Source: an uncultured Gammaproteobacteria bacterium
GTDB taxonomy: Bacteria; Patescibacteriota; Microgenomatia; Levybacterales; UBA12049
NCBI GenBank assembly: GCA_964408485.1
Contig: CAYOZJ010000002.1
Coordinates: 69,235-133,234 of the forward strand
Length of the DNA stretch: 64,000 nucleotides
Reading direction: 5' to 3'
The notes under the pieces were generated by a model. That model was given only the letters and a program-made list of their open reading frames with translations, was not told the DNA's origin and made no database searches. Shown here one piece after another: positions 4,342-63,745 of this stretch; position 1 is the first letter of the stretch, and every line of letters begins with the position of its first letter. The position numbers and the translations under genes are program-made.

Positions 4342-4908
4342 ATGAAGAAAATAATACTTATCTCGCTTCTTCTCTTCTTTTTTGTCTTTCCTAAAAATAG
4401 TATTGTTACGGCAGATGACAGCAGTATGAGCGCAACAGCGTCTCCAACAGCAGTGGTTGTTAATGACTATACACTTCCATACCCAGGTCTCTTACCAGAT
4501 AATCCCTTATATGTTATTAAGACAATTCGAGATAGAATTGTTACTTTTTTTATTTCTGATCCATTGAAGAAATCGTCATTTAACTTGCTTCAATCAGACA
4601 AGCGACTTGAAGCATCGTGGTATCTTTTGAAAAAGGATGTCAAGAATAATAGTCTTGCTCTTTCAACACTCTCTAAATCCACAACGTACTTTTCGCTATC
4701 TATTGACGAGTTACATAAAGCGCAGGGAAGCGGGGAAGACATAAATGCGCAGATAGATAGTATAAAAAATGCCATTGCCAAACATGTTGCTGTTGCCCAT
4801 GAAATGCTTTCTCTTCCAGGACTTGGAAATAAAAATGGATTTGCTCAGGAAGTAAAACGACTTGATAATATTCAGAAAACTGTATCGGGGTTTAGCCCTG
4901 AGGAGTAG
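4342..4908 (+). CDS. secreted protein, DUF5667-like
   Basis: Signal peptide MKKIILISLLLFFFVFP. The motif YTLPYPGLLPDNPLYVIK is, from memory, characteristic of DUF5667 proteins common in CPR genomes. The ORF track starts at 4303, but 4342 follows a better SD-like GGAAAG. Confidence 0.5.
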   Translation: MKKIILISLLLFFFVFPKNSIVTADDSSMSATASPTAVVVNDYTLPYPGLLPDNPLYVIKTIRDRIVTFFISDPLKKSSFNLLQSDKRLEASWYLLKKDVKNNSLALSTLSKSTTYFSLSIDELHKAQGSGEDINAQIDSIKNAIAKHVAVAHEMLSLPGLGNKNGFAQEVKRLDNIQKTVSGFSPEE

Positions 4909-5055
4909 GCTGACTTTAAGAAATTGACTAGAATCTGTTAACGAAGAAGAAGAGAATTTTCCACAAAAAAGAAACTGAGGCTAGAAAAAGGACTGACCCA
5001 ATTTGATACACTAATTGCTAGTTGACGCCACAGATTTAGGGTCCTAATATCGATA

Positions 5056-5113: not shown

Positions 5114-5566
5114 ATGAAATGTCCATACTGCGGTAATAACCAAACAGAGGTTGTAGAAACACGAGATAACGAAGAGCTAGAGACAATACGCAGAAGACGC
5201 AGTTGCAGTAATTGTGGCAAACGCTTTACCACATATGAGCGCATAGAAAATGTCGATTTATATGTACGGAAAAAAGATGGAAGGCGTGAGCTTTTTAATA
5301 GGGATAAATTAAGAAAAGGTGTGCTAACATCTACAGAGAAAACAAAAATTTCTGTAGAGACAGCAGAAAAAATCGTTGCAGATATAGAGCAAGAGATTCG
5401 TGCAAAAGGAATACTTGAAATAAAAAGTAAAGAAATAGGGGACATGGTTGCAAAACGCTTGAAAAAATTAGACAAAGTAGCATATATTCGCTTTGCCAGT
5501 GTTTTTAAACGCTTTGTCGATGTAGAAGATTTTGAAAAAGAAGTAAGAAAGTTGGTAATTAAATAA
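5114..5566 (+). CDS. nrdR: transcriptional repressor NrdR
   Basis: MKCPYCGNNQTEVVETRD...CSNCGKRFTTYERIE zinc ribbon plus ATP-cone. Confidence 0.95.
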   Translation: MKCPYCGNNQTEVVETRDNEELETIRRRRSCSNCGKRFTTYERIENVDLYVRKKDGRRELFNRDKLRKGVLTSTEKTKISVETAEKIVADIEQEIRAKGILEIKSKEIGDMVAKRLKKLDKVAYIRFASVFKRFVDVEDFEKEVRKLVIK

Positions 5567-8024: not shown

Positions 8025-8222
8025 TGCATTCATAGCAGTATGCAGTAAGAATTATGGGCATATTGCGTAGAGCATAAAGCATAATTCATATATTTATACA
8101 TTGGGCAAACACCGTGTAATTCGGTGGAAGTGCCGCTACTGTAAATCCAGAAAACCATGTATAAATCATTCTCGAGCAAGAACGTTTTTGGGCACGTCCT
8201 TCTCGAGAGAGAGGGATTTTTT

Positions 8223-11252: not shown

Positions 11253-11303
11253 CGGAGACAACATGCAATCCTGAGCGTAGTCGAAGGATCTCCTCCTTAT
11301 TTT

Positions 11304-14681: not shown

Positions 14682-14754
14682 GGGTCGGTAGCTCAGTTGG
14701 TTAGAGCACTTGTCTTATACACAGGCTGTCGGAGGTTCGAGTCCTCCCCGACCC
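14682..14754 (+). tRNA. tRNA-Ile (anticodon UAU)
   Basis: Cloverleaf folded by hand: acceptor GGGTCGG/CCGACCC, D-arm GCTC..GAGC, anticodon stem CTTGT/ACAGG with loop CTTATAC (U33, anticodon TAT, A37), T-arm GGAGG TTCGAGT CCTCC, discriminator A. No encoded CCA. Confidence 0.75.
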
Positions 14755-14760
14755 ACTGGA

Positions 14761-21835: not shown

Positions 21836-22347
21836 AATTATATTATACTATAAGTTTTAAAGTTGTCAATAAGGGAGTAAAAGGAGCTTGTTTATAACTT
21901 GTGTTGCGGGGCTAGGAGTTGCGCCTAGCCTGTGAGATTATGCATCTGTAATCTCTGATTACTCAGAGTGTCGGACTATATCTTCCAGCCAGTGGCTGGT
22001 TCAGCGTATAGTCTCTACGGGTTCTCACCAAGTGGCGAGTCTTCCCTCGGTATTGTCCTCCGTCAACTGACAGATAGGAGTCCACCGATATAGCTGAATT
22101 CAATTCTCATTATTGCTAATAAGATGGCCCATTATGTTAAGCCTCACGTGCACTGTACACTACCCCGCGTATGAGCATAGTATAGCATTATTTCATTGAT
22201 TTAGCCAGCCTCAATTGGTATACTTAGGGTACTTTCTAGTCACCTGAACTTGATTCAGGATCTCATTTTAAGAATGAGATCCTTCGTTTTACTCAGAATG
22301 ACAGGAGAAGATTGCCACGGAACATTCGTTCCTCGCAATGACGATAC
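21836..22347. other. ~500-bp ORF-free, hairpin-rich region (candidate structured RNA and/or repeat array)
   Basis: No ORF of 60 aa or more on either strand. Several perfect hairpins: GGCTAGGAGTTGCGCCTAGCC, CCAGCCAGTGGCTGG, GATTATGCATCTGTAATC, GATCTCATTTTAAGAATGAGATC. The 3' end carries family repeats (CTCAGAATGACAGG, GATTGCCACG...CCTCGCAATGACG) abutting tRNA. Confidence 0.3.
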
Positions 22348-22420
22348 GCCAGGGTAGCTCAGTGGTTAGAGCACCACATTCATAACGTGGCGGTCGGCAG
22401 TCCGACTCTGCCCCCTGGTA
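22348..22420 (+). tRNA. tRNA with CAU anticodon (Met, or Ile2 if lysidinylated)
   Basis: GCCAGGGTAGCTCAGTGGTTAGAGCACCAC... anticodon loop TTCATAA (CAT). The acceptor has a G1-U72 wobble and the T-loop TCCGACT is atypical (C55), so I am less certain it is functional. Confidence 0.55.
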
Positions 22421-22441
22421 CTAAGGAATTCTCAATTTTTT

Positions 22442-32752: not shown

Positions 32753-33658
32753 ATGCGAAAATTACAGCCTGAAAGAGTAAGAGAATTCCGCAGAAAAATA
32801 CTTTCCTGGTATAAAAAGAATAAGCGTGATTTACCTTGGCGCCATCCTTCGCTAAAGCTTCGGAATGGTAAAGGACGTGATCCTTATGCAATTCTTGTTT
32901 CAGAAGTAATGCTTCAACAAACACAAGTGAGTCGAGTCATTGAAAAATATAATGAGTGGATAAAAGCATTTCCAACAATTAGGAAATTGGCAAAAGCATC
33001 TTTTAGAGATATCTTGTCTCGTTGGTCAGGGCTTGGATACAACAGGCGTGCTTTATATCTGCAGCAGCTTGCCCAGGATATTGTGAAAAATCACCATGGA
33101 AAGTTTCCGCAGAATGAAAAAGAGCTACAAAAGCTTCCTGGCATTGGGGAATATACAGCTAGAGCAATTCTTTGTTTTGCATTTAATGAGCAAGTTGCTG
33201 TAGTGGATACAAATATCAGAAAAGTCATACTTACAAATTTTTTCTCTGAGCGAGCGAGGCGAGTCGAAGAGCCTTCGACAGGCTCAGGCAAAAAAGGTTC
33301 TGGGCAAGCCAGAATGACAGATAAAGAAATCCAAGAAATTGCAAATCAGCTTCTTCCAAAAGGAAAGGCCTATGAGTGGAATCAGGCGCTTATGGACTAT
33401 GCATCGAGTGAGTTAAAGCAGGAAAAAATACCAATTCCTAAGCAGTCAAAATTTAAAGATTCAGATAGGTATTATCGTGGAGAGATTTTGCGTATGCTTC
33501 TTACTAATCCTGCCTATTCATTTGAAGAGGTACAAAAACATTTTGTAGAAATCAAAAAAGAAATTTCTTCGCAGCGCCTTGAGAGAATAGTTCAAACATT
33601 ATATAAGGATAGATTTATTGAATATACAAAATCCGTTATAGTTCTGAGAAAGAATTAA
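32753..33658 (+). CDS. HhH-GPD DNA glycosylase (MutY/Nth family) with in-frame repeat insertion
   Basis: WYKKNKRDLPWR, PYAILVSEVMLQQTQV and LPGIGEYTARAILCFAFNEQVAVVDTNIRKV (HhH-GPD). Contains inserted FFSERARRVEEPSTGSGKKGSGQARMTDK. Confidence 0.8.
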   Translation: MRKLQPERVREFRRKILSWYKKNKRDLPWRHPSLKLRNGKGRDPYAILVSEVMLQQTQVSRVIEKYNEWIKAFPTIRKLAKASFRDILSRWSGLGYNRRALYLQQLAQDIVKNHHGKFPQNEKELQKLPGIGEYTARAILCFAFNEQVAVVDTNIRKVILTNFFSERARRVEEPSTGSGKKGSGQARMTDKEIQEIANQLLPKGKAYEWNQALMDYASSELKQEKIPIPKQSKFKDSDRYYRGEILRMLLTNPAYSFEEVQKHFVEIKKEISSQRLERIVQTLYKDRFIEYTKSVIVLRKN

Positions 33659-36294: not shown

Positions 36295-37320
36295 TTGTCA
36301 TGGTATACTACAAAGTACATGAAAAAGTTACTTCTGATTGATGGAAATGCCATTTTACACCGTGCATTTCATGCCTATCCACCAGTATTTTCTGACAAAG
36401 AGGGTAATCCTACAAATGCTATTTATGGCTTTTATGCAATGCTTTTAAAAGTTATGGAGGAGGTAAAACCAGATTTACTCACCATTTGCTTTGATCAAGG
36501 TGCGCCGACTTTTCGCATGAATATGTATGCTGGGTATCATGCCAATAGGCCAAAAATGCAGGACACATTGGGAGTACAGGTCGAGCCCTTGCGTGAGTCT
36601 TTGCGTAAAATAGGAATTCCCGTTGAAGCAATCGATGGATATGAAGCAGATGATTTAATTGGGACATTATCTCATCAAGCGTCAAGCGTAAGGCGTAAAG
36701 GGGAAAGTTTGGAAACAATAATCCTAACAGGTGACAGGGATCTTTTGCAGTTAATTAACGAGCATACCAAAGTTCTTATGCCAATAACAGGAATTACGAA
36801 GTCTGTCTTAATGGATGAAGGAGCAGTTGAGGCAAAATACGGCATAAAGGCAAGTCAGGTAATTGATTACAAAGCCTTAGTTGGCGACCCGTCTGATAAC
36901 TATCCAGGTGTTGGGGGAATAGGTCCTAAAACAGCGGCAACACTTCTTAAAGAGTGGGAAACATTGGAGAATTTGTATACCCATTTGGGAGATATAAAAC
37001 CTGAGTTGAGTCAAAAATTAGCTCAAGATGCAGAGCAGGCAATGCTATGCAAGAAGTTGGCAACCATTCAGCTAGACGTACCTGTTCATTTAGATATAAA
37101 GAAAGCAGATGTAGACAATTTTTCTCTGGAAAAGTTTTTGGATATTTTCGAGCACTTCAATATTCACTCATTGGTTAAGAGGCTTAGTCTAGCGCTAGGA
37201 AGTGAAGCACCTATAACACGAAGCGAGACGAAGCAATCTAGTTTAAAGAAAGATTCTGGACAAGCCAGAATGACGAAAGAAGAAAAGAAGAAAGAGGATA
37301 GTCAACTAGAGCTACTTTAG
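36295..37320 (+). CDS. 5'-3' exonuclease (stand-alone Pol I 5'-nuclease/FEN domain) with repeat-derived C-terminal tail
   Basis: LLLIDGNAILHRAFHA and GDRDLLQL, H3TH region. The C-terminal ~40 aa (SETKQSSLKKDSGQARMTKEEKKKED) derive from repeat DNA. Confidence 0.85.
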   Translation: MSWYTTKYMKKLLLIDGNAILHRAFHAYPPVFSDKEGNPTNAIYGFYAMLLKVMEEVKPDLLTICFDQGAPTFRMNMYAGYHANRPKMQDTLGVQVEPLRESLRKIGIPVEAIDGYEADDLIGTLSHQASSVRRKGESLETIILTGDRDLLQLINEHTKVLMPITGITKSVLMDEGAVEAKYGIKASQVIDYKALVGDPSDNYPGVGGIGPKTAATLLKEWETLENLYTHLGDIKPELSQKLAQDAEQAMLCKKLATIQLDVPVHLDIKKADVDNFSLEKFLDIFEHFNIHSLVKRLSLALGSEAPITRSETKQSSLKKDSGQARMTKEEKKKEDSQLELL

Positions 37321-38300: not shown

Positions 38301-38393
38301 AGAAGAAAATTGCTCTATTGCTGAATTACTAAATTGTTCTAGAAAAACAATATAACAATTTAAGAATTTAACAATTAGTATAGTGAGATTGCT

Positions 38394-39101
38394 TCACTTC
38401 GTTCGCAATGACGAATCACTTTTTAACCAGCGGACGCCGAGATACACTAGTGGTGTTTCAATAATAGACATAAAGCAGCGAAGAAGCCAATAGGGAAGAG
38501 CTATGCCTGCAATAAAGGAAATATTTGCTCCAAAGGATACATTGAGGGCCCAGAATGCTAGCGTCATAAAGATTGCTGTATCAAAAAACTCAGAGACAAA
38601 ATTACTTACATTTGTCCTGAGCCAGAGGTTTTTCTTGCCTAATTTTTGCCTCATTTTCGCAAAAATAAATACGTCAGAGAATTCAGAAATCGCAAATGCA
38701 ATAAGGGATGCTGCAGAAAAACGAATGGATATACCAAAGATTGTGTTGTACGCATTATTTGTTGAAAGAAATCTGGTGCTTGGAGGAAGGGAGGTCGCTA
38801 ATATAGAGAAAAGAAGTAAGAAAAAAATCATAAAAAGACTACTTCTGACAATGCTTTGTGCGCGGGCCTTGCCATAGACCTCTACAATAATGTCATTTGC
38901 TGCGTAAATGAATGGCAAAATAAAAATAACAACAGTTGCATTAAGGTGAAATGTACCAAGAGTTGCGATAGGAAATGTTTTAGCACCCATGACTTCGGAA
39001 ATAATTACGCAGGTAATATAAAATGCTGCAAGGAGGTCAAATTTCTGGATATTTATCATGATGTAGAGCATGATACGGGAAGTATATGAGGCTGTCAACA
39101 T
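38394..39101 (-). CDS. YhhQ/DUF165 family queuosine-precursor transporter-like membrane protein
   Basis: Polytopic. PFIYAANDIIVEVYGKARA resembles the YhhQ/VUT family core. The last 10 codons and the stop derive from a repeat element. Confidence 0.5.
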   Translation of the reverse strand: MLTASYTSRIMLYIMINIQKFDLLAAFYITCVIISEVMGAKTFPIATLGTFHLNATVVIFILPFIYAANDIIVEVYGKARAQSIVRSSLFMIFFLLLFSILATSLPPSTRFLSTNNAYNTIFGISIRFSAASLIAFAISEFSDVFIFAKMRQKLGKKNLWLRTNVSNFVSEFFDTAIFMTLAFWALNVSFGANISFIAGIALPYWLLRCFMSIIETPLVYLGVRWLKSDSSLRTK

Positions 39102-39446: not shown

Positions 39447-40727
39447 ATGCCTAGAATAGCCCTGGTTCACGATTATATTAAAGAATACGGTGGAGCGGAA
39501 AGGGTACTAGAGACTTTGCATGAAATGTATCCCAATGCACCTGTATTTACCCTAGTATATTGTCCAAAATTCTTAGGACCACATAAAGATAGATTTAAGA
39601 ATTGGGATATCCGCACATCATTTCTTCAGTCTATCCCTTTTAAAGAAAAATTTATTAGCATCTTTCGGCTTTTTGCCCCATTTATTTTTCCATTTTTCAA
39701 CTTTGCTGGGTACGATGTAATCATTGTAAGCGCAACAGGGGCATATAGTCCCAACGTAGTTGGGACAAGAGGTAAGAAGGAAGAGGTAAGAAGTAAGGAA
39801 AGTGACCATACGCCATACGCCATACGCCATACGCCGTATCACATCTGCTACTGCCACACGCCGCCCAGATATTTGTATGGATACGCAACAGCTAGAGAAC
39901 TAAAAAAGAATTCTCTTATTCGATTATTGGCAGAATGGATGAATAAATGGCTTGTGCGAGTAGACAAAAAGTCCAGTAAAAATGTGGATTTGTATATTGC
40001 CAATTCAGAAGAAGTACGAGCACGAATTAAGAAATTTTATAACAAAGATGCAATTGTTGTGTATCCACCAGTTGATGTTCCTTCAGTGTCATTCCTGCGA
40101 AGGCAGGAATCCAGGAAAGGAACTGGATCCCGGATCGGAGTCCGGGATGACAATTTTTATCTAGCAGGCGGGCGTCTTGCCAGGCCAAAGCATTTCGATT
40201 TAATCATCAAGGTAGCAAATGAATTAAAGTTGTCCCTCAAGATTTTTGGGAAAGGATTTGCAGGGTATGGAGAAGAGCTGTATGATTTGGCAAATAGACT
40301 ACAGCAAGCAGACTACAGTAAAGAAGCTGTAGTCGGTAGTCCGAAAGCTGTAAGCGTTATTACGTTTTTGGGAGAAGTAACAGATGAAGAAAAAATACAT
40401 CTTATGTCCGGTGCTAAAGCATTTATTATGAGTAGTGAAGATGAGGATTTTGGCATAACACCAGTTGAGGCAATGGGGGTTGGGACACCGGTGATTGCAT
40501 ATAAGAGTGGTGGACTTAAAGAAACAGTTATTGATGGCAAGACAGGAGTATTTTTTGACATGTTATCTGCAGAAAGTCTAATTGGGGCAATAAAGAAGTT
40601 TGAAGCCCTTCGACAAGCTCAGGGTAAAAGACTGTCTGAGAATTGTATTGCGCAAGCGCAAAAATTTAGCAAAGAGAACTTTGAAAAAGGAATTCGTTCT
40701 GTCATCTCTAAAATCTTGTCATCCTGA
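39447..40727 (+). CDS. glycosyltransferase family 4 (GT1-fold) with multiple in-frame repeat insertions
   Basis: MPRIALVHDYIKEYGGAERV N-terminus and C-terminal EDFGITPVEAMGVGTPVIA (E-x7-E region). Inserted peptides EEVRSKESDHTPYAIRHTPYH and SFLRRQESRKGTGSRIGVRDD. The stop lies inside a GTCATCCTGAG repeat. Confidence 0.8.
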   Translation: MPRIALVHDYIKEYGGAERVLETLHEMYPNAPVFTLVYCPKFLGPHKDRFKNWDIRTSFLQSIPFKEKFISIFRLFAPFIFPFFNFAGYDVIIVSATGAYSPNVVGTRGKKEEVRSKESDHTPYAIRHTPYHICYCHTPPRYLYGYATARELKKNSLIRLLAEWMNKWLVRVDKKSSKNVDLYIANSEEVRARIKKFYNKDAIVVYPPVDVPSVSFLRRQESRKGTGSRIGVRDDNFYLAGGRLARPKHFDLIIKVANELKLSLKIFGKGFAGYGEELYDLANRLQQADYSKEAVVGSPKAVSVITFLGEVTDEEKIHLMSGAKAFIMSSEDEDFGITPVEAMGVGTPVIAYKSGGLKETVIDGKTGVFFDMLSAESLIGAIKKFEALRQAQGKRLSENCIAQAQKFSKENFEKGIRSVISKILSS

Positions 40728-40942
40728 GCTTGCGAAGGATATATTCTTCACTTTGTTTAGAATGACAAAGGAAAAAGATTTCTCACTTCGTTCGAAATGA
40801 CACTCTTCTTACTTATTTCTAACCTCCTCTTACACAATATTAATTGTAATTTCATTTAAGAGTTCTATCCTGTCAGGAAGCTGTTGGGGAATCGTTGGCC
40901 ATAGGTCAAGTTAAAGATTCTCTGCAGGAATATAATTAGCTT

Positions 40943-42776: not shown

Positions 42777-43997
42777 ATGATCCTCAGGTCAATTCTTCTT
42801 CAGCATTTTCGCAATTATACCCAGGAAAAGTTTGATTTTTCAGAAACTCTCACTCTTATTATTGGAGTAAATACTGCCGGTAAAACCAATCTTTCTGAGG
42901 CAATATATTTACTTGCAACAGGGAAGAGTTTTAAGGCAGGTAATGATACATTTATGATTGCTTTTGGACAAGAGATTGCAAGGGTGGGAGGATTGCTGGA
43001 AGATGTCATCCCCGACCAGATCGGGGATCCAGGAAAAGAACTGGATTCCCGCTTTCGCGGGAATGACAGTAAAAAAAAGGATGACGGTTTGGACAAGACT
43101 AAAATAGAAGTAGTTATCGCCAGTCCTCAGGCAACTGGAGGGAGATTTAGCAAGAAATTTCTTATAAATGGTGTTGGAAAATCGCGGAATAGTTTGCGAG
43201 GTATGCTCCCAATTGTCCTTTTCCGGCCTGAAGAATTGGACATTATTATTGATGGACCAAGTCTCAGGCGCGCATTTCTTAATGAAGTACTTGAGCAGGC
43301 AGATAAAGAATATGCCCAAGCATTATCTGTCTTCGAACGGTCTCTTAGGCAGCGCAATGCGCTTCTTCGTATAGCTCAGGAGACTGGAAAACGAAATAGT
43401 GAGCAATTTGATTATTGGGACGAGCTTCTTATTGAGAGTGGGCAGACAATTACACAAAAGCGTGAAGAATTTTTGGTATTTATCAATTCATCCACTCATG
43501 ATATTTTTCCTTTACAGACTTTTTTCGATAAGAGTATTATTTCTCGCGAACGGTTAGATGGATATGAGATGGCAGAAGTCGGGGCAGGGGTGACCCTTGT
43601 AGGGCCTCACAGAGATGATTTCTTTGTGAACATGGAATATCCTGGTTTTAATCCCAACCCTCATCCCAGCTCGCCGAGGCAAGCTGACCTTCTCCCAAAA
43701 GGAGAAGGAGAACAAGGTGATATCCACTACGTGGATATACGATTTTTCGGTTCGAGGGGGCAGCAGAGACTTGCAGTGCTCCAGTTAAAAATGCTCCAAA
43801 TACAGTATTTGGAAAAGAAACTAGGAGTATTGCCACTTCTTATCTTGGATGATATTTTTTCTGAATTAGATAGTAACCATATTCAGCTTGTTTTGGATAA
43901 CGTGAAAGGATGCCAAATCATTCTAACCACAACGCATAGGGAGTTTATTCCACAAAAGGTATTACGTGAGGCTAGTGTGGTAGAATTAGAGCGATAA
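42777..43997 (+). CDS. recF: DNA replication and repair protein RecF with in-frame palindromic-element insertions
   Basis: MILRSILLQHFRNY, Walker A GVNTAGKTNLSEAIY and C-terminal LILDDIFSELD. Inserted VIPDQIGDPGKELDSRFRGNDSKKKDDG. Confidence 0.85.
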   Translation: MILRSILLQHFRNYTQEKFDFSETLTLIIGVNTAGKTNLSEAIYLLATGKSFKAGNDTFMIAFGQEIARVGGLLEDVIPDQIGDPGKELDSRFRGNDSKKKDDGLDKTKIEVVIASPQATGGRFSKKFLINGVGKSRNSLRGMLPIVLFRPEELDIIIDGPSLRRAFLNEVLEQADKEYAQALSVFERSLRQRNALLRIAQETGKRNSEQFDYWDELLIESGQTITQKREEFLVFINSSTHDIFPLQTFFDKSIISRERLDGYEMAEVGAGVTLVGPHRDDFFVNMEYPGFNPNPHPSSPRQADLLPKGEGEQGDIHYVDIRFFGSRGQQRLAVLQLKMLQIQYLEKKLGVLPLLILDDIFSELDSNHIQLVLDNVKGCQIILTTTHREFIPQKVLREASVVELER

Positions 43998-44093: not shown

Positions 44094-44972
44094 ATGCAAC
44101 AATTTGACATAAAACAACTGAAACAGCTTTACATTCCACCAGCTGGATCTCATAAAGGGGACAATGGAAAGGTTATGGTTATTGGCGGAAGTCAGCTTTT
44201 TCATGCTGCATCACTTTGGTCTTTGGAAATTGCATCAAAAATTGTAGATATGGTTTTTTACTCATCAGTTGATGCAAACAATGCACTCGTTGAAAAAGAA
44301 AAGGAAGCATTTAGAAATGGGATTATTGTTCCAAGAAATAAAATTGAAGATTACATTGCAGAGGCAGATAGCGTACTTATTGGGCCAGGATTACCAAGAG
44401 AGAATGGCTACGAGGCAGGCGATGACGATACAAAAATTCTCACCGAAAAACTTCTTAAAAAATATCCCAATAAGCGATGGGTAATTGATGGTGGTAGTTT
44501 GCAGGTGATTAACCCTGACCTTATTCCACAAAATGCTATTCTTACGCCACATCATCAAGAATTTGAAAGACTGTTTGGAAAGCGTCAAGCGTCAAGCGTC
44601 AAGCGTAAAGGAGAGAAAGAGATTGCCGCGGTCGCTAAAGACTCCCTCGCAATGACGGTTGGGGAGATGGCAAAGAAATATCACTGTATTGTTTTACTGA
44701 AAGGTCCAGAAGATGTTGTTTGTTCGGAAAATGAATGTGTAAGAGTTCCGGGAGGTAATGCAGGTATGACAAAAGGTGGAACAGGAGATGTGCTTGCAGG
44801 GCTTACAGCAGCTTTATATTCCCAAAACGCTGACGCATTCTTAGTAGCAACTTCTGCAAGCTATATCAATAAAAAAACAGGTGAGTCTCTTTTTGAAAAA
44901 CAAGGCTATTACTTTAACTCAAGTGATTTAGTGAAGGAAATCCCAGGAGTCATGAAAGAATTACTGCTCTAA
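44094..44972 (+). CDS. ADP-dependent NAD(P)H-hydrate dehydratase / YjeF C-terminal carbohydrate-kinase-like domain protein
   Basis: GDNGKVMVIGGSQLFHAASL and GGTGDVLAG. Carries the insertion KRQASSVKRKGEKEIAAVAKDSLAMTVGE. Confidence 0.75.
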   Translation: MQQFDIKQLKQLYIPPAGSHKGDNGKVMVIGGSQLFHAASLWSLEIASKIVDMVFYSSVDANNALVEKEKEAFRNGIIVPRNKIEDYIAEADSVLIGPGLPRENGYEAGDDDTKILTEKLLKKYPNKRWVIDGGSLQVINPDLIPQNAILTPHHQEFERLFGKRQASSVKRKGEKEIAAVAKDSLAMTVGEMAKKYHCIVLLKGPEDVVCSENECVRVPGGNAGMTKGGTGDVLAGLTAALYSQNADAFLVATSASYINKKTGESLFEKQGYYFNSSDLVKEIPGVMKELLL

Positions 44973-47730: not shown

Positions 47731-49521
47731 ATGACCTTTGCGAAATTAGCCTCGTATTTTGAAAAATTAGAAGCAACTTCCTCCCGTTTAGAGCTTATCC
47801 GTATTCTCTCAGAACTCTTCAAAGAAATAAAAACTCCAGATGAAATAGAAAAGGTATGTTATTTGGTTCAGGGTCGTATTGCGCCATTTTTTGAAGCAAC
47901 AGAAATCGGAATGGCAGAACGGACTGTGGCACAGTCCGTTGCTACAGCATTTAATGTCGAAAAAGAGAAAGTCTTAAAAGAATATAGTAAGCGTGGAGAT
48001 TTAGGGTTGGTTACGTATGAGCTTGCGCAAGAAGTAAGAAGTAAGAATTATGAATCAAGAATAACCATAGATGAGGTGTTTGAAACTTTAATAAAAATAG
48101 CAAAGACTAGTGGGGAAGGAACTGTTGAAAAACGACTAACATTATTAACAGATCTTTTGCAAAAAGTAGACGCACTTTCAGCAAAGTTTCTTGTACGCAT
48201 TCCACTAGGTAATCTTCGTTTGGGAATTGGTGACCCAACTGTTTTAGATGCACTCGCGACAGTAAAATTGGGAGATAAAACCCAGCGACATTATTTAGAA
48301 GATGCATACAATAGGACATCTGACTTAGGACTTATTGCAAAAACTCTTTGGTCAGAAAAAAGCGCAATGAAAGCATTGGGTGCAGTCGAAAAATTAGAAG
48401 TAACAGTTGGTAAGCCAATTCGAAGCGAATTGTGCGAGCGTCTTCCTAGTCCTGAAAAAACAATAGAAAAAATGGGGACAGTGGATTCACAGTTTAAATA
48501 CGATGGATTTCGCGTACAAATTCATAAAAATGGAAATGAAATCTCGCTTTTTTCTCGTAATTTAGAAAATATGACCCATATGTTTCCAGAGCTTATAGAG
48601 GGAGCCAAGAGACAAATTAAAGCGCGTAGCGCAATTCTGGATAGCGAAGCATTAGCATACATACCTGAGTCTGAAGAATTTTTGCCTTTCCAGGAGACAA
48701 CAAAACGAAGACGTAAGCATAATATAGAAGAAACAATGGCCAAGCTTCCACTTAAGTCATTTGTTTTTGACATTTTGTATAAAGATGGCAAGTCACTTAT
48801 TGGCGAACCTTTAGAAAAGCGTTTGGAGATTTTGTCAAAAACCCTTCGGCCAGCTCAGGGCAAGCAGTTTAACGATAGTGTTCTTTTTCCAGCAGATACT
48901 AAAAAGATTTCTGATGCAAAGGTGTTATCTCTTATGCTTGATGACGCAATTTCTAAAGGCTTAGAGGGAATAGTAGTAAAGAAATTGAATAGTCTTTACG
49001 AAGCAGGCGCGCGCAATTTTAACTGGGTAAAGCTAAAGCGTAACCAGTCTGGTGAGTTAACAGATACGGTTGACTGTGTGATTTTAGGATACATTTTTGG
49101 CAAAGGAAAGCGAACAGCATTTGGCGCAGGAGCATTATTGGTTGGTGTGTATGATAAAGCATCAGATAGCTTTGTAACAGTAAGTAAGATTGGAACAGGA
49201 TTAACTGATGAGGAGTGGAAAAGTATTAAGGAAAGGACAAAAGGATTAGAACTTTCTCATAAGCCAGCTCGGGTGAGCTCTATTATAGAACCAAGTGTTT
49301 GGGTAAAGCCTGAGATTGTTATAGAGGTCTTGGCAGATGAGATTACAAGAAGTCCTATTCATACAGCAGGAGCTACTTTGGAGAACGGAAAAGTCGTTGA
49401 GCCAGGATATGCTCTCAGATTTCCACGGTTAGTTAACTTTCGGGATAAAGATAAAAAATCAGAAGATGCAACGGATGTGAAAGAGTTGATTGAAATGTAT
49501 AAGAGTCAAGGAAAGAAGTAG
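47731..49521 (+). CDS. ATP-dependent DNA ligase
   Basis: Adenylation motif KYDGFRVQIH (KxDG), OB domain. Inserted heptamer-derived QEVRSKNYESRI. Confidence 0.85.
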   Translation: MTFAKLASYFEKLEATSSRLELIRILSELFKEIKTPDEIEKVCYLVQGRIAPFFEATEIGMAERTVAQSVATAFNVEKEKVLKEYSKRGDLGLVTYELAQEVRSKNYESRITIDEVFETLIKIAKTSGEGTVEKRLTLLTDLLQKVDALSAKFLVRIPLGNLRLGIGDPTVLDALATVKLGDKTQRHYLEDAYNRTSDLGLIAKTLWSEKSAMKALGAVEKLEVTVGKPIRSELCERLPSPEKTIEKMGTVDSQFKYDGFRVQIHKNGNEISLFSRNLENMTHMFPELIEGAKRQIKARSAILDSEALAYIPESEEFLPFQETTKRRRKHNIEETMAKLPLKSFVFDILYKDGKSLIGEPLEKRLEILSKTLRPAQGKQFNDSVLFPADTKKISDAKVLSLMLDDAISKGLEGIVVKKLNSLYEAGARNFNWVKLKRNQSGELTDTVDCVILGYIFGKGKRTAFGAGALLVGVYDKASDSFVTVSKIGTGLTDEEWKSIKERTKGLELSHKPARVSSIIEPSVWVKPEIVIEVLADEITRSPIHTAGATLENGKVVEPGYALRFPRLVNFRDKDKKSEDATDVKELIEMYKSQGKK

Positions 49522-49874: not shown

Positions 49875-51374
49875 ATGGTTGATGTTGTTGCAGATTTACA
49901 TCTGCATTCTCGTTTCTCCAGAGCGGTTAGTCCTCAAATGACTCCTCCCACAATGGCACAATTTGGAGACCAGAAAGGGATAGATCTTTTGGCAACAGGA
50001 GACTGGACACATCCGGTATGGTTTCGGGAAATCAGCAACTTTCTCACAGAAGCAGAAGAAGGACTGTATAAAATCAAGAATCCAACTCCCCAAAATGAAA
50101 AGACACGATTTCTTCTTTCTGTAGAAATTGCCTCTATTTATTCCCAAGGAGGGAAGGGAAGAAGGATTCACAACTTAGTATTTGTTCCATCCTTCGAAGT
50201 GGCAGCAAAAGTAAATAAAGAGCTGATAAAACGCGGATTTAATTTATCTTCTGACGGGAGGCCAATCATAGGATTTTCCTCAAAGAATTTACTTTCACTT
50301 CTCCTTGAAGTAGATGAGCGGTGTCTTCTTATTCCCGCTCATGTCTGGACGCCATGGTTTGGCATTTACGGACAGATGTCTGGGTTTCAAAGTCTTGCGG
50401 AAGCATTTGAAGAATTAGCACCAAAGATTTATGGAATAGAGACAGGTCTTTCAAGTGATCCGGAGATGAATTGGCAAGTTGATGAGCTAAAGACAAGGTC
50501 AATTCTTAGCTTTTCTGATGCACATTCTCCTGCGAAAATGGGGCGAGAAGCAACGGTTTTTCGCTTGGACAGCTTGTCTTATGAGAATATTCGTCAAGCA
50601 ATAATGGCGCCAAGCCTTCGTTCCGTCATTGCGAGCAAAGCGAAGCAATCTAATATAAATAAGGAGAAGATTGCCACGTCGCAAGCTCCTCGCAATGACA
50701 ATGTTAATAAAGTACTCTACACCATAGAATTTTATCCAGAAGAGGGGAAGTACCATTATTCAGGCCATAGAAATTGCGGAATTACCATGACGCCACAAGA
50801 GCAAGCAGCAGCGCATAATATTTGTCCTGTATGTAAAAGGTCTCTTACCGATGGGGTTATGAGACGTGTTCAGGAACTCGTAGAAAAGGACCCTTCGGCA
50901 TCGGTTCGGCAAGCTCACGACGAGGGCTCAGGGCAAGGTCCCTTTGGAAGTCATACGCCTAATAAAAGTGGCCTTGTCTGGATAACAGACCCTAAAGAAA
51001 ATCGTCCACCATTTGTCAAAATAGTACCGCTCCAGGAAATAATTAGTGAGGCAATTGGGAGTCCTTTTGCAAGCCCGAAGGTAAAAGTAATCTTCGATAT
51101 GCTCTGTAAAGACGGACTCTCTGAATTTAATGTACTCCTTAAATTGCCCTTACCAGATATTGAGCGAATAAGTCTTAGTATTACTTCAAAAGAATTTGCT
51201 GAAAAAATTACTGATGGAATAAAGAAAGTACGTGCAGAGCAAATTGTGATTAAGCCAGGATACGACGGTGTATTTGGGGTAGTAAAGATTTGGAGTGATG
51301 AGAATGACAGTGAAAACCCTTCGACTTCGCTCAGGGAAAAAGATACTGAAGAGCAGATTGGATTAGAGTTTTAG
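49875..51374 (+). CDS. Endonuclease Q (EndoQ)-like PHP-domain nuclease with zinc finger
   Basis: DLHLHSRFSRAVSPQMT PHP N-terminus, LIPAHVWTPWFGIYG, SFSDAHSPAKMGREAT, KYHYSGHRNCGI and CPVCKRSL zinc finger, RPPFVKIVPLQEII. All are collinear with archaeal EndoQ as I recall it. Confidence 0.7.
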   Translation: MVDVVADLHLHSRFSRAVSPQMTPPTMAQFGDQKGIDLLATGDWTHPVWFREISNFLTEAEEGLYKIKNPTPQNEKTRFLLSVEIASIYSQGGKGRRIHNLVFVPSFEVAAKVNKELIKRGFNLSSDGRPIIGFSSKNLLSLLLEVDERCLLIPAHVWTPWFGIYGQMSGFQSLAEAFEELAPKIYGIETGLSSDPEMNWQVDELKTRSILSFSDAHSPAKMGREATVFRLDSLSYENIRQAIMAPSLRSVIASKAKQSNINKEKIATSQAPRNDNVNKVLYTIEFYPEEGKYHYSGHRNCGITMTPQEQAAAHNICPVCKRSLTDGVMRRVQELVEKDPSASVRQAHDEGSGQGPFGSHTPNKSGLVWITDPKENRPPFVKIVPLQEIISEAIGSPFASPKVKVIFDMLCKDGLSEFNVLLKLPLPDIERISLSITSKEFAEKITDGIKKVRAEQIVIKPGYDGVFGVVKIWSDENDSENPSTSLREKDTEEQIGLEF

Positions 51375-51512: not shown

Positions 51513-51950
51513 ATGGCACAAAGTAAAAATTGGCAAGATATGATGGAAGAATGGTTTGGCAAATTGCCAATGCTTCCAAAAGGAGGACGGGATGTCTTGG
51601 TAAAAGTTGCTCCATGGGTCGCATTAATTTTTGGAGTCTTAGGTGTTTTGGTTGGCCTTGGAGGACTTGGTTTGTTATCAGTTTTGTCTCCAATGATGCT
51701 TCTTGGATCTGGAATGAGTAATACAGCAGGATCACTTTTGAGTGTTGCTGTTTCTTTAGTAAGTTCAGTATTATTACTGCTTGCTTTCCCAGGTCTTAAA
51801 AAGCGAAAGATGCAAGGATGGAACATGCTTTTCTGGAGTGAAGTTGCAGCATTTGTTTCGTCGTTAGTTGCATTATCTATCGTTGGCGGCGTAATAGGCG
51901 CAGCTATTGGATTTTATCTGTTATATCAGATTAAGAGTTATTACAAGTGA
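51513..51950 (+). CDS. small polytopic membrane protein
   Basis: SD GGGAGGGGGGTGAAATATATG. Gly/Leu-rich TM helices. Confidence 0.5.
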   Translation: MAQSKNWQDMMEEWFGKLPMLPKGGRDVLVKVAPWVALIFGVLGVLVGLGGLGLLSVLSPMMLLGSGMSNTAGSLLSVAVSLVSSVLLLLAFPGLKKRKMQGWNMLFWSEVAAFVSSLVALSIVGGVIGAAIGFYLLYQIKSYYK

Positions 51951-52002
51951 TTTGTTTATAAACAAATAAAAAAAGGATACGGTGAAAACCTGTGTCCTTT
52001 TT

Positions 52003-52235
52003 TGTCATTTCGAACAAAGCGAGAAATCTCATTCAAGTATTTTTCTTCTTCTGTACTTTTGTGCCGACAAAAGATACCAAAAACTCTCGCCAAGGTCTTG
52101 TTCGAGCTTTCAAAAAAGAGCTCCAAAGCTAAAAGTACGCAGTTCGCTTTCACTTTCTTTACGCTTTTATGCCCTTTTTCTTATGCACTCACTGCAAATT
52201 GGCGAATAAGAACCATTTACATGAGGAGTATAATA
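52003..52235 (+). repeat. ~200-bp dispersed repeat copy A (upstream of pth)
   Basis: Near-identical core to 63530..63745 (..CTCTCGCCA.G..CTTGTT..AGCTTTCAAAAAAGAGCT.CAAAGCTAAAAGTACGCAGTTCGCTTTCACTTTCTT.ACGCTTTT..). Confidence 0.7.
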
Positions 52236-52241
52236 AGACAT

Positions 52242-52856
52242 ATGAAATTAATAGTGGGACTCGGTAATCCAGGCGAAAAGTATGAGAAAACAAGACATAA
52301 CATAGGATTTATGGCATTGGATAGTTTCCTCAAAGATTTTGAGTCTACAAAAGATACGGTTTGGACAGATAGTAAAAAATTCAAATCAGATATTGCAGAA
52401 ATTGCGTGGCAACGACAAACTGATGGTGACAAATCTCATGACCCTGAAAAAGTTATTTTAGCCAAGCCTAAAACATATATGAATGATTCAGGTCTAGCTG
52501 TTAAATTACTGATAGATTTTTACAAGGTACAGCCAGAAGATCTGTGGATACTGCATGACGATGTGGATTTTCCTGCAGGATCTATGCGAATTCGATTAGG
52601 AGGAGCATCAGCAGGGCACAGAGGGATCATGTCTATTATTGAGCATTTGGGTACAGACCAATTTTATCGCTTTCGCTTAGGCATTGGGAGGCCGGGGGAA
52701 AGTGAACACAGTGGAGTAAGTCATTATGTACTGGATACCTTTAACCATGAAGACCACAGTAATGTAAGGGAACTTCTTAAGCGGACAAGCAAGGCTATTG
52801 AGCTAGGACTAGAAAAAGATTTAACCGCTGCAATGAACAAATATAACTCCAAATAG
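52242..52856 (+). CDS. pth: peptidyl-tRNA hydrolase
   Basis: MKLIVGLGNPGEKYEKTRHNIGF N-terminus. The track ORF extends upstream through the repeat, so 52242 is preferred. Confidence 0.85.
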   Translation: MKLIVGLGNPGEKYEKTRHNIGFMALDSFLKDFESTKDTVWTDSKKFKSDIAEIAWQRQTDGDKSHDPEKVILAKPKTYMNDSGLAVKLLIDFYKVQPEDLWILHDDVDFPAGSMRIRLGGASAGHRGIMSIIEHLGTDQFYRFRLGIGRPGESEHSGVSHYVLDTFNHEDHSNVRELLKRTSKAIELGLEKDLTAAMNKYNSK

Positions 52857-53577: not shown

Positions 53578-53858
53578 TGCAATCCATCAAGCAGGTTTTA
53601 GATAAATTCAATCCCACAACAGATAAATATATTTCCCGTGAATTTCAGAGCTTTGGCGTCCATTTAGCAGAGGCGCTTGATGACATGAAACATAAGTCAC
53701 TCTATATAAAAATGGCCAAAACAATTCATAGATCTATTCTTGAAAAAGCGCTTTCATTTTGTGTTGATAGTAATGCCAAAAGCAAAGGCGCTCTTTTTAT
53801 GTGGAAAGTGACACAATTACGCAAAGATTATAGCGCGAAGCTCAAAGAACAAAAGTAA
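53578..53858 (+). CDS. hypothetical small helical protein
   Basis: MQSIKQVLDKF... The track start 53553 is a TTG. Confidence 0.35.
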
Positions 53859-53930
53859 TTGGGTCATCCTGGCTTGTCCAGGATCTAGATTCTGGATGCG
53901 CTTTGCTTACCAGAATGACAGGAGAATTTT

Positions 53931-57687: not shown

Positions 57688-57817
57688 GTGTCATCCTGAG
57701 CAAGCTAGAGGATATATTCTTTCCCGACTCGGGACTAGGTTCGCAGAACCGTTGCACACGTTCAGAATGACAATAGGACTGGATCCCGGATCGGAGTCCG
57801 GGATGACAAATTAATAT

Positions 57818-63529: not shown

Positions 63530-63745
63530 ATTGTCATTTCGAACAAAATGAGAAATCTTTTCTTTTTAACTTCTCTTGTACCGACAAGAGAAGCAGAAGC
63601 TCTCGCCAGGCCTTGTTCCAGCTTTCAAAAAAGAGCTTCAAAGCTAAAAGTACGCAGTTCGCTTTCACTTTCTTAACGCTTTTCCGCTCTTTTTCTCTCG
63701 CAGTCACAGCGGATTGGCGAATAAAGACCGCGGAAAATTTACCTC
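63530..63745 (+). repeat. ~200-bp dispersed repeat copy B (upstream of partial ORF at 63780)
   Basis: See copy A at 52003..52235. Confidence 0.7.

Follow-up and report, generated by a model that had tools for sequence, protein, structure and literature searches.

The 64-kb window analyzed here (the whole stretch of 64,000 nt taken from contig CAYOZJ010000002.1, positions 69,235 to 133,234) contains at 49875-51374, on the plus strand, an intact open reading frame (ORF) coding for a 499-aa endonuclease Q (EndoQ) family protein with a PHP domain, a zinc ribbon and a C-terminal domain. Within this gene, and in frame with it, lies the palindrome that is the subject of this work. A first-pass annotation of the same DNA had located it at 50623-50701; the palindrome is indeed there, but its true span is 50625-50699, two bases inside those limits. 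It comprises 75 nt coding for 25 residues, read in frame as VIASKAKQSNINKEKIATSQAPRND. Its terminal arms, GTCATTGCGAG (50625-50635) and CTCGCAATGAC (50689-50699), are 11 nt each and 100% complementary, as had been proposed, and the inner arms likewise pair. The feature is very probably a head-to-head heterodimer of CGTC/TGTC-tagged repetitive extragenic palindromic (REP) units, belonging to the dRS3/NTS/SRM hairpin family (which includes RPE-4 and RPE-6) and located in the linker-coding part of the EndoQ gene of an ultra-small Patescibacteria bacterium.

The folding expected by the first-pass annotation was confirmed, since the element folded far better than shuffled versions of it both as RNA (-28.1 kcal/mol, z = -4.35) and as DNA (-15.8 kcal/mol, z = -4.69; 0 of 200 shuffles as good). 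By our own estimate, about two bare 11-nt inverted repeats would be expected by chance in 64 kb. The predicted recurrence of the arm sequence was also verified: GTCATTGCGAG has four exact copies in the window and, allowing up to two mismatches, 22 occurrences versus 11.6 expected, a figure that no shuffle reached. What had been described as one palindromic element is, however, a dimer of two separate hairpin units, because halves of the palindrome occur alone elsewhere in the window. The left unit (50624-50650, plus strand) has the tag C-GTC, a 5-bp foot ATTGC/GCAAT, an internal loop GAG...CGAA around a mini-hairpin GC-AAA-GC, and a 3' C; it reads VIASKAKQ(S). The right unit (50669-50700) is inverted, with the minus strand reading T-GTCATTGCGAGGAGCTTGCGACGTGGCAATC and a longer inner segment, and its plus strand is translated as IATSQAPRND. 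Both units have the ATTGC/GCAAT foot and the GAG...CGAA internal loop, with an inner hairpin that varies, the tags being CGTC on the left and TGTC on the right and the 3' tails CTA and CTT. They are separated by an AT-rich spacer of 18 nt, TAATATAAATAAGGAGAA (50651-50668), of which AGGAGAAGATTGCCACG is also present in the unit at 22303-22319; the string AGGAGAA occurs both after the ATGAC terminus at 22303 and before the right unit in the EndoQ spacer.

The host protein aligned with PfuEndoQ from P. furiosus (PDB 5zb8) in three collinear blocks (E = 1.7e-40), and PF27218 is present in its homologues, which go by the name 'endonuclease Q family protein [Patescibacteria group bacterium]'. Invariant columns in an alignment with 36 Patescibacteria homologues include H9, H11, C301, C317 and C320. 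In the PfuEndoQ alignment, query residue 251 corresponds to chain residue 231 and query residue 279 to chain residue 230; from this jump at chain 230/231 it follows that query residues 252-278 have no counterpart in the archaeal enzyme, as had been suspected. The same alignment confirmed the claimed location of the element, after the PHP domain and ahead of the KYHYSGHRNCG zinc-ribbon region. The nearest homologues (P0002-5, 8 and 9; 70-77% identical by BLASTP) have only a linker of about 10 aa there, between AIMAPS and NKVLYTIEFYPEEGKYHY, and in the DNA of P0002 (locus L001) the site is empty. The proposal of an in-frame insertion was in this way borne out. Extra residues occur at this loop in about half of the 36 aligned homologues. 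The AlphaFold model of the protein (mean predicted local distance difference test, pLDDT, 84.3; predicted template modelling score, pTM, 0.84) dropped below pLDDT 50 solely at residues 261-270, which are REP-encoded, at 340-356 and in the C-terminal tail (479-499). Given this low confidence, the REP-encoded stretch is modelled as a floppy linker joining the well-folded PHP and zinc-ribbon domains. Residues 340-356 correspond to a second in-frame insert of 51 nt (50892-50942, plus strand; SASVRQAHDEGSGQGPF, containing GCTCAGGGCAAG), which falls in a second gap versus PfuEndoQ, at query 339-373. This other segment was found in this genome alone among the 36 homologues; it is modelled as disordered, gave no significant fold and is not a hairpin.

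Units of the same design are dispersed through the window. They consist of GTC, a stem beginning with AT, a loop or an inner hairpin, the complementary stem with an AT end, and C. A scan for GTC-[AT-stem]-loop-[stem-AT]-C gave 17 matches, 16 of them clear units, versus 1.63 +/- 1.17 in 100 shuffles (maximum 6). All 16 begin ATxxx...xxxAT, and the 3' C is invariant; the base before GTC is C in five, T in 10 and G in one. The stems differ and are always self-complementary (ATTGC, ATTTC, ATTCTGG, ATCCTGG, ATTCCTGC, ATTCCCGC, ATCCCGGA and ATCCCCGA); they measure 8 bp in units 40088, 43044, 43005 and 57782, and the tail is CCA(G) in units 40123, 43004, 43041 and 57779. Inverted dimers with the tags outward and unlike partners occur at 40088/40151, 43005/43067, 50625/50699 and 53863/53919. 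Single units are open in five of the six frames, the closed one being that in which ATGAC is read as TGA.

Eight of the 16 units lie in frame within five ORFs, three of which are DNA-repair or replication genes. Besides EndoQ, a 5'-3' exonuclease gene (ORF 36295-37320) hosts a single unit near its C-terminus (37252-37275, minus strand; DSGQARMT); a GT4 glycosyltransferase gene (ORF 39447-40727) carries a head-to-head dimer (termini outside) at 40087-40152, plus strand, read as VSFLRRQESRKGTGSRIGVRDD; and a RecF/SMC-type ATPase gene (ORF 42777-43997) carries another at 43004-43068, plus strand, read as VIPDQIGDPGKELDSRFRGND. The fifth, an NAD(P)H-hydrate dehydratase gene (ORF 44094-44972), has an ATTGC-class unit (44621-44656) preceded by (AAGCGTC)x3.5, the two together spanning 44582-44657 on the minus strand. 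That tandem (44582-44608) is read KRQASSVKRK, occupies the place expected of a partner unit and reiterates the CGTC tag.

Other units are intergenic: a single ATTGC-class unit at 38387-38413 (minus strand); a pair at 40727-40802, 3' of the GT4 gene, formed by a GTCATCCTGAGC...GAAGGAT unit and a GTCATTTCGAAC unit; a TGTC unit at 52003-52028 (plus strand), at the head of one copy of a ~215-nt repeat (see below); and a unit at 57779-57808 (minus strand) identical to 40123-40152. At 22292-22343 (minus strand), two units are located directly 5' of tRNA-Met (22348-22421), with 5 nt from the ATGAC terminus to the tRNA. A head-to-head dimer (53862-53920, plus strand) follows a stop codon and precedes the ribosome-binding site of the gene that comes next; within the region 53862-53930 it takes up the entire gap from TAA (53856-53858) to AGGAG.

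Comparison with a syntenic relative in an independent assembly (L002, GCA_009772315.1) revealed the same element at the same codon of its EndoQ gene. The left unit is identical in 27 of 27 nt and the right one differs by a single 3-nt indel, while the spacer is CAAG in the relative versus 18 AT-rich nt in the window. Outside the element, the two EndoQ genes have 66.4% nucleotide identity (45% at third positions), and with such divergence the probability of a fully identical left unit is about 2e-5. These comparisons showed that the sequence of the unit is conserved independently of the host gene. The first-pass annotation had counted an equivalent segment in EndoQ homologues as evidence against its reading. 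Such a segment does exist, at the same codon of the more distant homologue P0013; since the unit there is identical in 27 of 27 nt and the gene in 66%, it strengthens the insertion reading instead.

In the RecF-like gene, the window and L002 have head-to-head dimers at the same codon with different stem classes, that of L002 being of the ATTGC class. The GT4 gene has the CGTC dimer in the window and an unrelated 'PLPKGEG' palindrome at the corresponding site of L002, and the dehydratase gene, with its (AAGCGTC)x3.5 tandem and one unit in the window, has nothing in L002. The same EndoQ loop holds VIPAKAGIQ...SGMT...RNDD in P0007, RHSGLTRIS...PQNDE in P0014 and RHPELV...VSGSQ...SGMT in P0012, which are other members of the hairpin family in other reading frames. 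From the different palindromes at matching codon positions of the RecF-like and GT4 genes, and from the other REP classes in the EndoQ loop, it follows that certain protein loops are colonized again and again, either through independent insertions or through one REP taking the place of another. A third family of in-frame palindromes, P(L)LPKGEG / PHPNPL (CCCTCTCC...GGAGAGGG), was seen in the RecF/SMC-type ATPase (aa 297-319; 42777-43997), in the GT4 gene of L002, where it occupies the exact site of the window's CGTC dimer, and in EndoQ homologues P0006 and P0080.

The design of these units matches that of the CGTC-tagged REPs defined by Di Nocera, De Gregorio and Rocco (2013, BMC Genomics 14:522, PMC3733652), which carry at one end of the palindrome an unpaired terminal tag CGTC, often TGTC (or CCTC), have stems that nearly always begin with AT, and end in a 3-nt CCA-like unpaired tail. 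Their families CGTC-1 to CGTC-4 have stems of 8-9 bp and loops of 4-5 nt; head-to-head dimers predominate, many of them heterodimers, with spacers of 20-100 bp whose ends are often complementary. Intragenic in-frame dimers that add 20-30 aa were also reported, many in replication and repair genes, and among the peptides in the supplement of that study is SIPAKAGIQTGPSMDSRLRGNA, from a Pol I family protein, a motif of the same type as the ...DSRFRGND of the window. Neisseria dRS3 and RPE-6 of R. conorii were assigned to CGTC-1 and RPE-4 to CGTC-4. Most REPs were found to be intergenic, and the five phyla listed do not include Patescibacteria; bulged variants probably escaped the survey, and Bradyrhizobium CGTC-1 has other loop lengths (Di Nocera et al., 2013). 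The EndoQ element resembles these REPs in its CGTC/TGTC tag, its stem beginning with AT, its tail beginning with C, its head-to-head heterodimeric arrangement, its dispersed copies, the existence of in-frame dimers and the lack of a linked transposase. It differs in that half of the 16 units of the window are intragenic and in that the host phylum is Patescibacteria. We file it in the CGTC REP superfamily, in none of its four families.

In-frame palindromes in protein genes are also a feature of the Rickettsia palindromic elements (RPEs), to which the window units are linked via the CGTC classification of RPE-4 and RPE-6 only; RPE-1 is longer, about 100-150 bp. RPEs are palindromic repeats found in frame in numerous, unrelated protein genes of a bacterium that has a small genome and depends on a host, and they are tolerated because the segments that they encode form surface loops. 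They were reportedly described by Ogata et al. in 2000 as 'selfish DNA in protein-coding genes'.

A second line of evidence relates the units to a nuclease. SsnA binds and cuts the dRS3-containing NTS hairpin CGTCATTCCCGCGMAVGCGGGAATCYRG (Chenal et al., 2025, Nat Commun 16:2388, PMC11893778). This small single-domain GIY-YIG protein (cd10448) acts on single-stranded DNA (ssDNA) only, and on one strand; the cut site is just upstream of the hairpin, cutting is under the control of the GTC, and binding depends above all on the C that follows the stem. The ssnA gene is typically bracketed by hairpins in the manner of an insertion sequence, and a homologue is encoded in 81% of the genomes having >200 motifs. 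The intragenic share of NTS in N. meningitidis is 2%, and the study does not cover in-frame copies or Patescibacteria (Chenal et al., 2025). Like NTS (CGTCATTCCCGCG..GCGGGAATCYRG), the units of the window have an invariant GTC and a 3' C, and these are the bases on which cleavage and binding were reported to depend most. The published pattern for Ssn-related motifs (SRMs), HGTCWYN(0-2)YYVSBRHN(0-5)WNVSBRGN(0-2)RNCYNB (Chenal et al., 2025), is matched by four units of the window versus 0.15 expected, among them both units of the RecF/SMC-type ATPase gene and the intergenic unit at 57779-57808.

The stretches of GTDB species genomes that contain the exact 26-mer GTCATTGCGAGCRAAGCGAAGCAATC number at least 120, and 116 viral contigs contain it too. 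Its hosts include Bradyrhizobium, Sphingomonadales, Rickettsiales, Legionellales, Coxiellaceae, Desulfobacteraceae, Bacteroidia, Hymenobacter, Planctomycetota, Gemmatimonadales, Chloroflexota, Omnitrophota, Bacillota, Campylobacterales and Calothrix. Among the matches listed, the consensus around it is C-GTCATTGCGAGCGAAGCGAAGCAATC-CAG, and in 111 of 259 cases an inverted partner unit lies within 110 nt, mostly 20-32 nt away. The spacer ends in those dimers are often complementary (CCAG...CTGG), and the inner hairpin of the partner is variable yet self-complementary. Enrichment near the 26-mer was confined to structural and terminase genes of phages, contributed by viral contigs that are related. 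Rfam had no family on the element (whole window, gathering threshold) or at 51900-52350 (E-value threshold). Literature searches with the exact 11-mer, longer variants of the unit and the read-through peptides returned unrelated primers or nothing, and those combining Patescibacteria with palindromes or with GIY-YIG returned nothing relevant.

GIY-YIG genes were searched for with a phmmer probe; two ORFs were found and then verified by Pfam, and NCBIfam gave no match to them. In a Planctomycetota locus (L017), a 106-aa GIY-YIG ORF (PF01541, E = 8e-18) is located between CGTCATTGCGAGCGAAGCGAAGCAATCTC and GAGATTGC...CTCGCAATGAC, and is flanked by the exact 26-mer and its inverted partner. In an Omnitrophota locus (L044), the gene is flanked by GTCATTCTGAG...CGAAGAATC and GTCATCCTGAGG...CGAAGGATC units, classes that are present in the window too. 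A protein search with the latter GIY-YIG sequence returned >6000 homologues, the named ones belonging to Omnitrophota and Thermodesulfovibrio; one paper lists GIY-YIG genes among those apparently transferred from Patescibacteria. Metagenomes were scanned for an ATTGC unit followed after 290-320 nt by an inverted unit, and among the 120 loci obtained GIY-YIG was the sole recurrent cargo. In L017 and in seven metagenome loci, units of the ATTGC class stand on both sides of apparently single-domain GIY-YIG genes, in the order unit-gene-unit, a layout similar to that of ssnA. Seven of these cassettes (six from metagenome loci and that of L017) are complete, measure 360-381 bp and are bounded by the 11-nt termini of the EndoQ element, GTCATTGCGAG/CTCGCAATGAC; the termini of one further metagenome cassette are incomplete. 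The GIY-YIG protein in them has about 96 aa, cassette GC is 0.46-0.67, and no consistent target duplication was found across the seven. The L017 cassette is bracketed by a 126-nt direct duplication (4877-5002 and 5436-5561; 96% identical), maybe the footprint of an insertion; a flanking duplication of this type was not seen at the six other cassettes. Since the EndoQ element shares its 11-nt termini with the cassettes, comparison of the sequences suggests that the 75-bp element may be a gene-less miniature of the ~370-bp GIY-YIG cassette, the two standing to each other as miniature and autonomous element.

As to the mechanism of spread, we infer that the EndoQ dimer arrived as DNA, via insertion or by REP-to-REP replacement in an already colonized loop, and that the driver proposed for the family, the small single-domain GIY-YIG ssDNA nuclease Ssn, may mobilize the hairpins. 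The dimer would survive, with EndoQ still working, because its 75 nt amount to 25 codons without a stop in the frame used and would encode a hydrophilic, disordered surface linker between folded domains. A bolder version can be proposed, in which the ~370-bp cassette would be an autonomous mobile element with an Ssn-type 'transposase' and the 75-bp dimers its miniatures, spread horizontally, phages included; in Patescibacteria, these would preferentially re-enter or overwrite colonized sites, would be a main source of protein length variation and would show a bias toward repair genes. Horizontal spread would explain the identical 26-mers from Bradyrhizobium to Patescibacteria, and re-entry would explain why the same loops (EndoQ, RecF-like, GT4) are hit repeatedly. 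We regard this bolder version as tentative and rather doubtful.

Several observations weigh against placing the EndoQ dimer in the Ssn/CGTC hairpin family and against its spread by insertion. Both EndoQ units fail the SRM pattern because TG stands where pyrimidines (YY) are required at stem positions 3-4; judged by sequence, the units share the SRM design, yet would not count as SRMs under the published pattern. With their 5-bp foot, GAG/CGAA internal loop and variable inner hairpin, they also depart from the plain 8-9-bp stem and 4-5-nt loop of CGTC REPs. Folded singly, they were no better than shuffles (z = -0.75 and +0.36), and only together do they fold well. No GIY-YIG ORF was detected in the window, L001 or L002 with the phmmer probe and regular-expression scans, and no ssn gene was found in the 64 kb of the window, unlike at typical NTS/SRM loci. 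Just seven of the 120 metagenome loci with the cassette geometry have a GIY-YIG gene, and none of the 120 contains a low-GC, Patescibacteria-like cassette. No recurrent neighbour protein family was found within 1.2 kb of the 26-mer in ~236 loci (among the matches listed), and CGTC REPs were found to have no linked transposase and never to flank tyrosine-transposase genes (Di Nocera et al., 2013). The activity demonstrated for Ssn is the cutting of ssDNA, not transposition. Target-site duplications were absent from the EndoQ, RecF-like, GT4 and Carb_kinase sites compared, and neither these sites nor the cassettes revealed a target consensus. Finally, the EndoQ site shared by the window and L002 could reflect either two insertions or one old insertion homogenized by gene conversion.

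The palindrome might instead be kept for a function in the EndoQ gene, either as a structured signal in RNA or DNA, such as an RNase site, an mRNA stabilizer, a pause of translation between the domains or a site of ssDNA cleavage limiting recombination of incoming DNA, or as a useful protein linker. The strong predicted fold and a nucleotide conservation far beyond that of the gene would fit such a role, as would the view of Di Nocera et al. (2013) that many REPs act as RNA elements, the excess in repair genes that they noted, and the predominance of DNA-repair or replication genes (three of five) among the hosts here; in Neisseria, moreover, NTS/Ssn lowers transformation by NTS-carrying DNA (Chenal et al., 2025). 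However, the nearest EndoQ homologues do without the element, in other lineages this loop is occupied by unrelated inserts, and the spacer differs in length and sequence between the window and L002. Both orientations are present in the dimers, so no strand-specific RNA signal is implied, and the encoded peptide is modelled as disordered. As the explanation of the element, we consider functional retention very unlikely; it is in any case compatible with a selfish origin and no alternative to it.

Mobilization as a REPIN/BIME-type element by a REP-associated tyrosine transposase (RAYT, an IS200/IS605-like Y1 HUH enzyme), as in the case of the GTAG REPs found in Pseudomonas and E. coli, would account for the same overall design, namely short tagged hairpins, dispersed and without target duplication, arranged as inverted dimers able to form a single long hairpin. 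REPINs and E. coli BIMEs share with the EndoQ element the use of such dimers as non-autonomous units, and with the cassettes a single-copy, domesticated-looking enzyme gene between hairpins. The tags here, however, are CGTC/TGTC and not GTAG, no CGTC repeat was found by Di Nocera et al. (2013) to flank a tyrosine-transposase gene, and the ~236 loci of the 26-mer yielded no recurrent neighbour protein among the matches listed. The sole recurrent cargo between inverted units is GIY-YIG, with no Y1 transposase among the neighbours, and REPINs and BIMEs are essentially extragenic. This origin is accordingly very improbable. Still less tenable is a classical miniature inverted-repeat transposable element, that is, a deletion derivative of an insertion sequence with a DDE transposase, moving by cut-and-paste. 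The perfect 11-bp terminal inverted repeats, the 75-bp size and the several copies recall one, but the compared sites have no target-site duplication, single units and half-elements are common, and there is no linked transposase gene. Just GTCAT...ATC is common to units whose stems are quite different, and therefore what is conserved is the hairpin with its tag and not a terminal repeat sequence; we judge this origin extremely unlikely. An ancestral variable loop, self-complementary by accident, or an assembly artefact would suit the length variation of the loop and its extra residues in about half of the 36 homologues, but is effectively refuted by the nucleotide identity of the unit with copies in unrelated phyla, in viruses and elsewhere in the window, by the same element in the independent assembly L002 and by fold z-scores of about -4.5.

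Some further repeats of the window deserve mention. The first-pass annotation had pointed to a second, shorter repeat-like segment near the C-terminus of EndoQ at 51322-51345. A repeat does exist there, with its true position at 51318-51335 (plus strand): it is a tagless mini-repeat, CCTTCGACTTCGCTCAGG, read as PSTSLR in the disordered C-terminal tail, without a significant fold (z = +0.57), and it is not a hairpin. The motif CCTTCGRC-N2-3-GCTCAGG has five exact copies in the window versus 0.00 expected (51318-51335, 11270-11287 on the minus strand, 33272-33288, 40607-40623 and 48843-48859), and in reverse complement it amounts to the GAG...CGAAG core of the GTCATCCTGAG REP class, lacking both tag and foot. 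The copy in a DNA ligase gene, 21 nt read as LRPAQGK, is inserted in frame by comparison with the L002 orthologue. The intergenic repeat of ~215 nt has two copies (52002-52215 and 63531-63745; 85% identical), in each of which a TGTCATTTCGAAC unit stands at the start and a degenerate inverted terminus close to the end; it gave no Rfam match and has no copy in L001 or L002, and its interpretation as a decayed GIY-YIG cassette was rejected, no GIY-YIG remnant being found in it. Two other ideas were dropped: a hammerhead-like ribozyme reading of GTC...CUGAG...CGAAG, owing to core mismatch and the lack of an Rfam match, and a link to the 23S-rRNA intervening-sequence protein PF05635 (present in L002), nothing similar to which recurs among the neighbours. 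The window also contains an AdoCbl-II (cobalamin) riboswitch aptamer at 8093-8165 on the plus strand (44.3 bits, above the gathering score) and a tRNA-Ile with anticodon TAT at 14682-14756 (ARAGORN).

The CGTC REPs, the in-frame copies of RPE type and the Ssn hairpin family were already known, and the EndoQ dimer is no new kind of element. What is new is the lineage, the host gene, the class of units with a foot and an internal loop, which lies outside the SRM pattern, and the evidence that loops are colonized repeatedly. The CGTC/Ssn hairpin family is thereby extended to Patescibacteria, a phylum outside both key studies (Di Nocera et al., 2013; Chenal et al., 2025). Its behaviour there is RPE-like, in a compact genome with little intergenic space and with half of the copies in frame. 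This explains odd low-complexity inserts such as VIASKAKQS, VIPAKAGIQ, RFRGND, LAMT and SGMT, which make Patescibacteria proteins longer and more diverse and can lead annotation, alignment and the discovery of domains astray. The identical units in diverged genes, the different REP classes at one codon and the termini common to GIY-YIG cassettes bear on how such hairpins spread. Pairs of Ssn and hairpin are under development as ssDNA tools, and the class with a foot and the GAG/CGAA loop, with GIY-YIG partners of its own, may be useful for that purpose.

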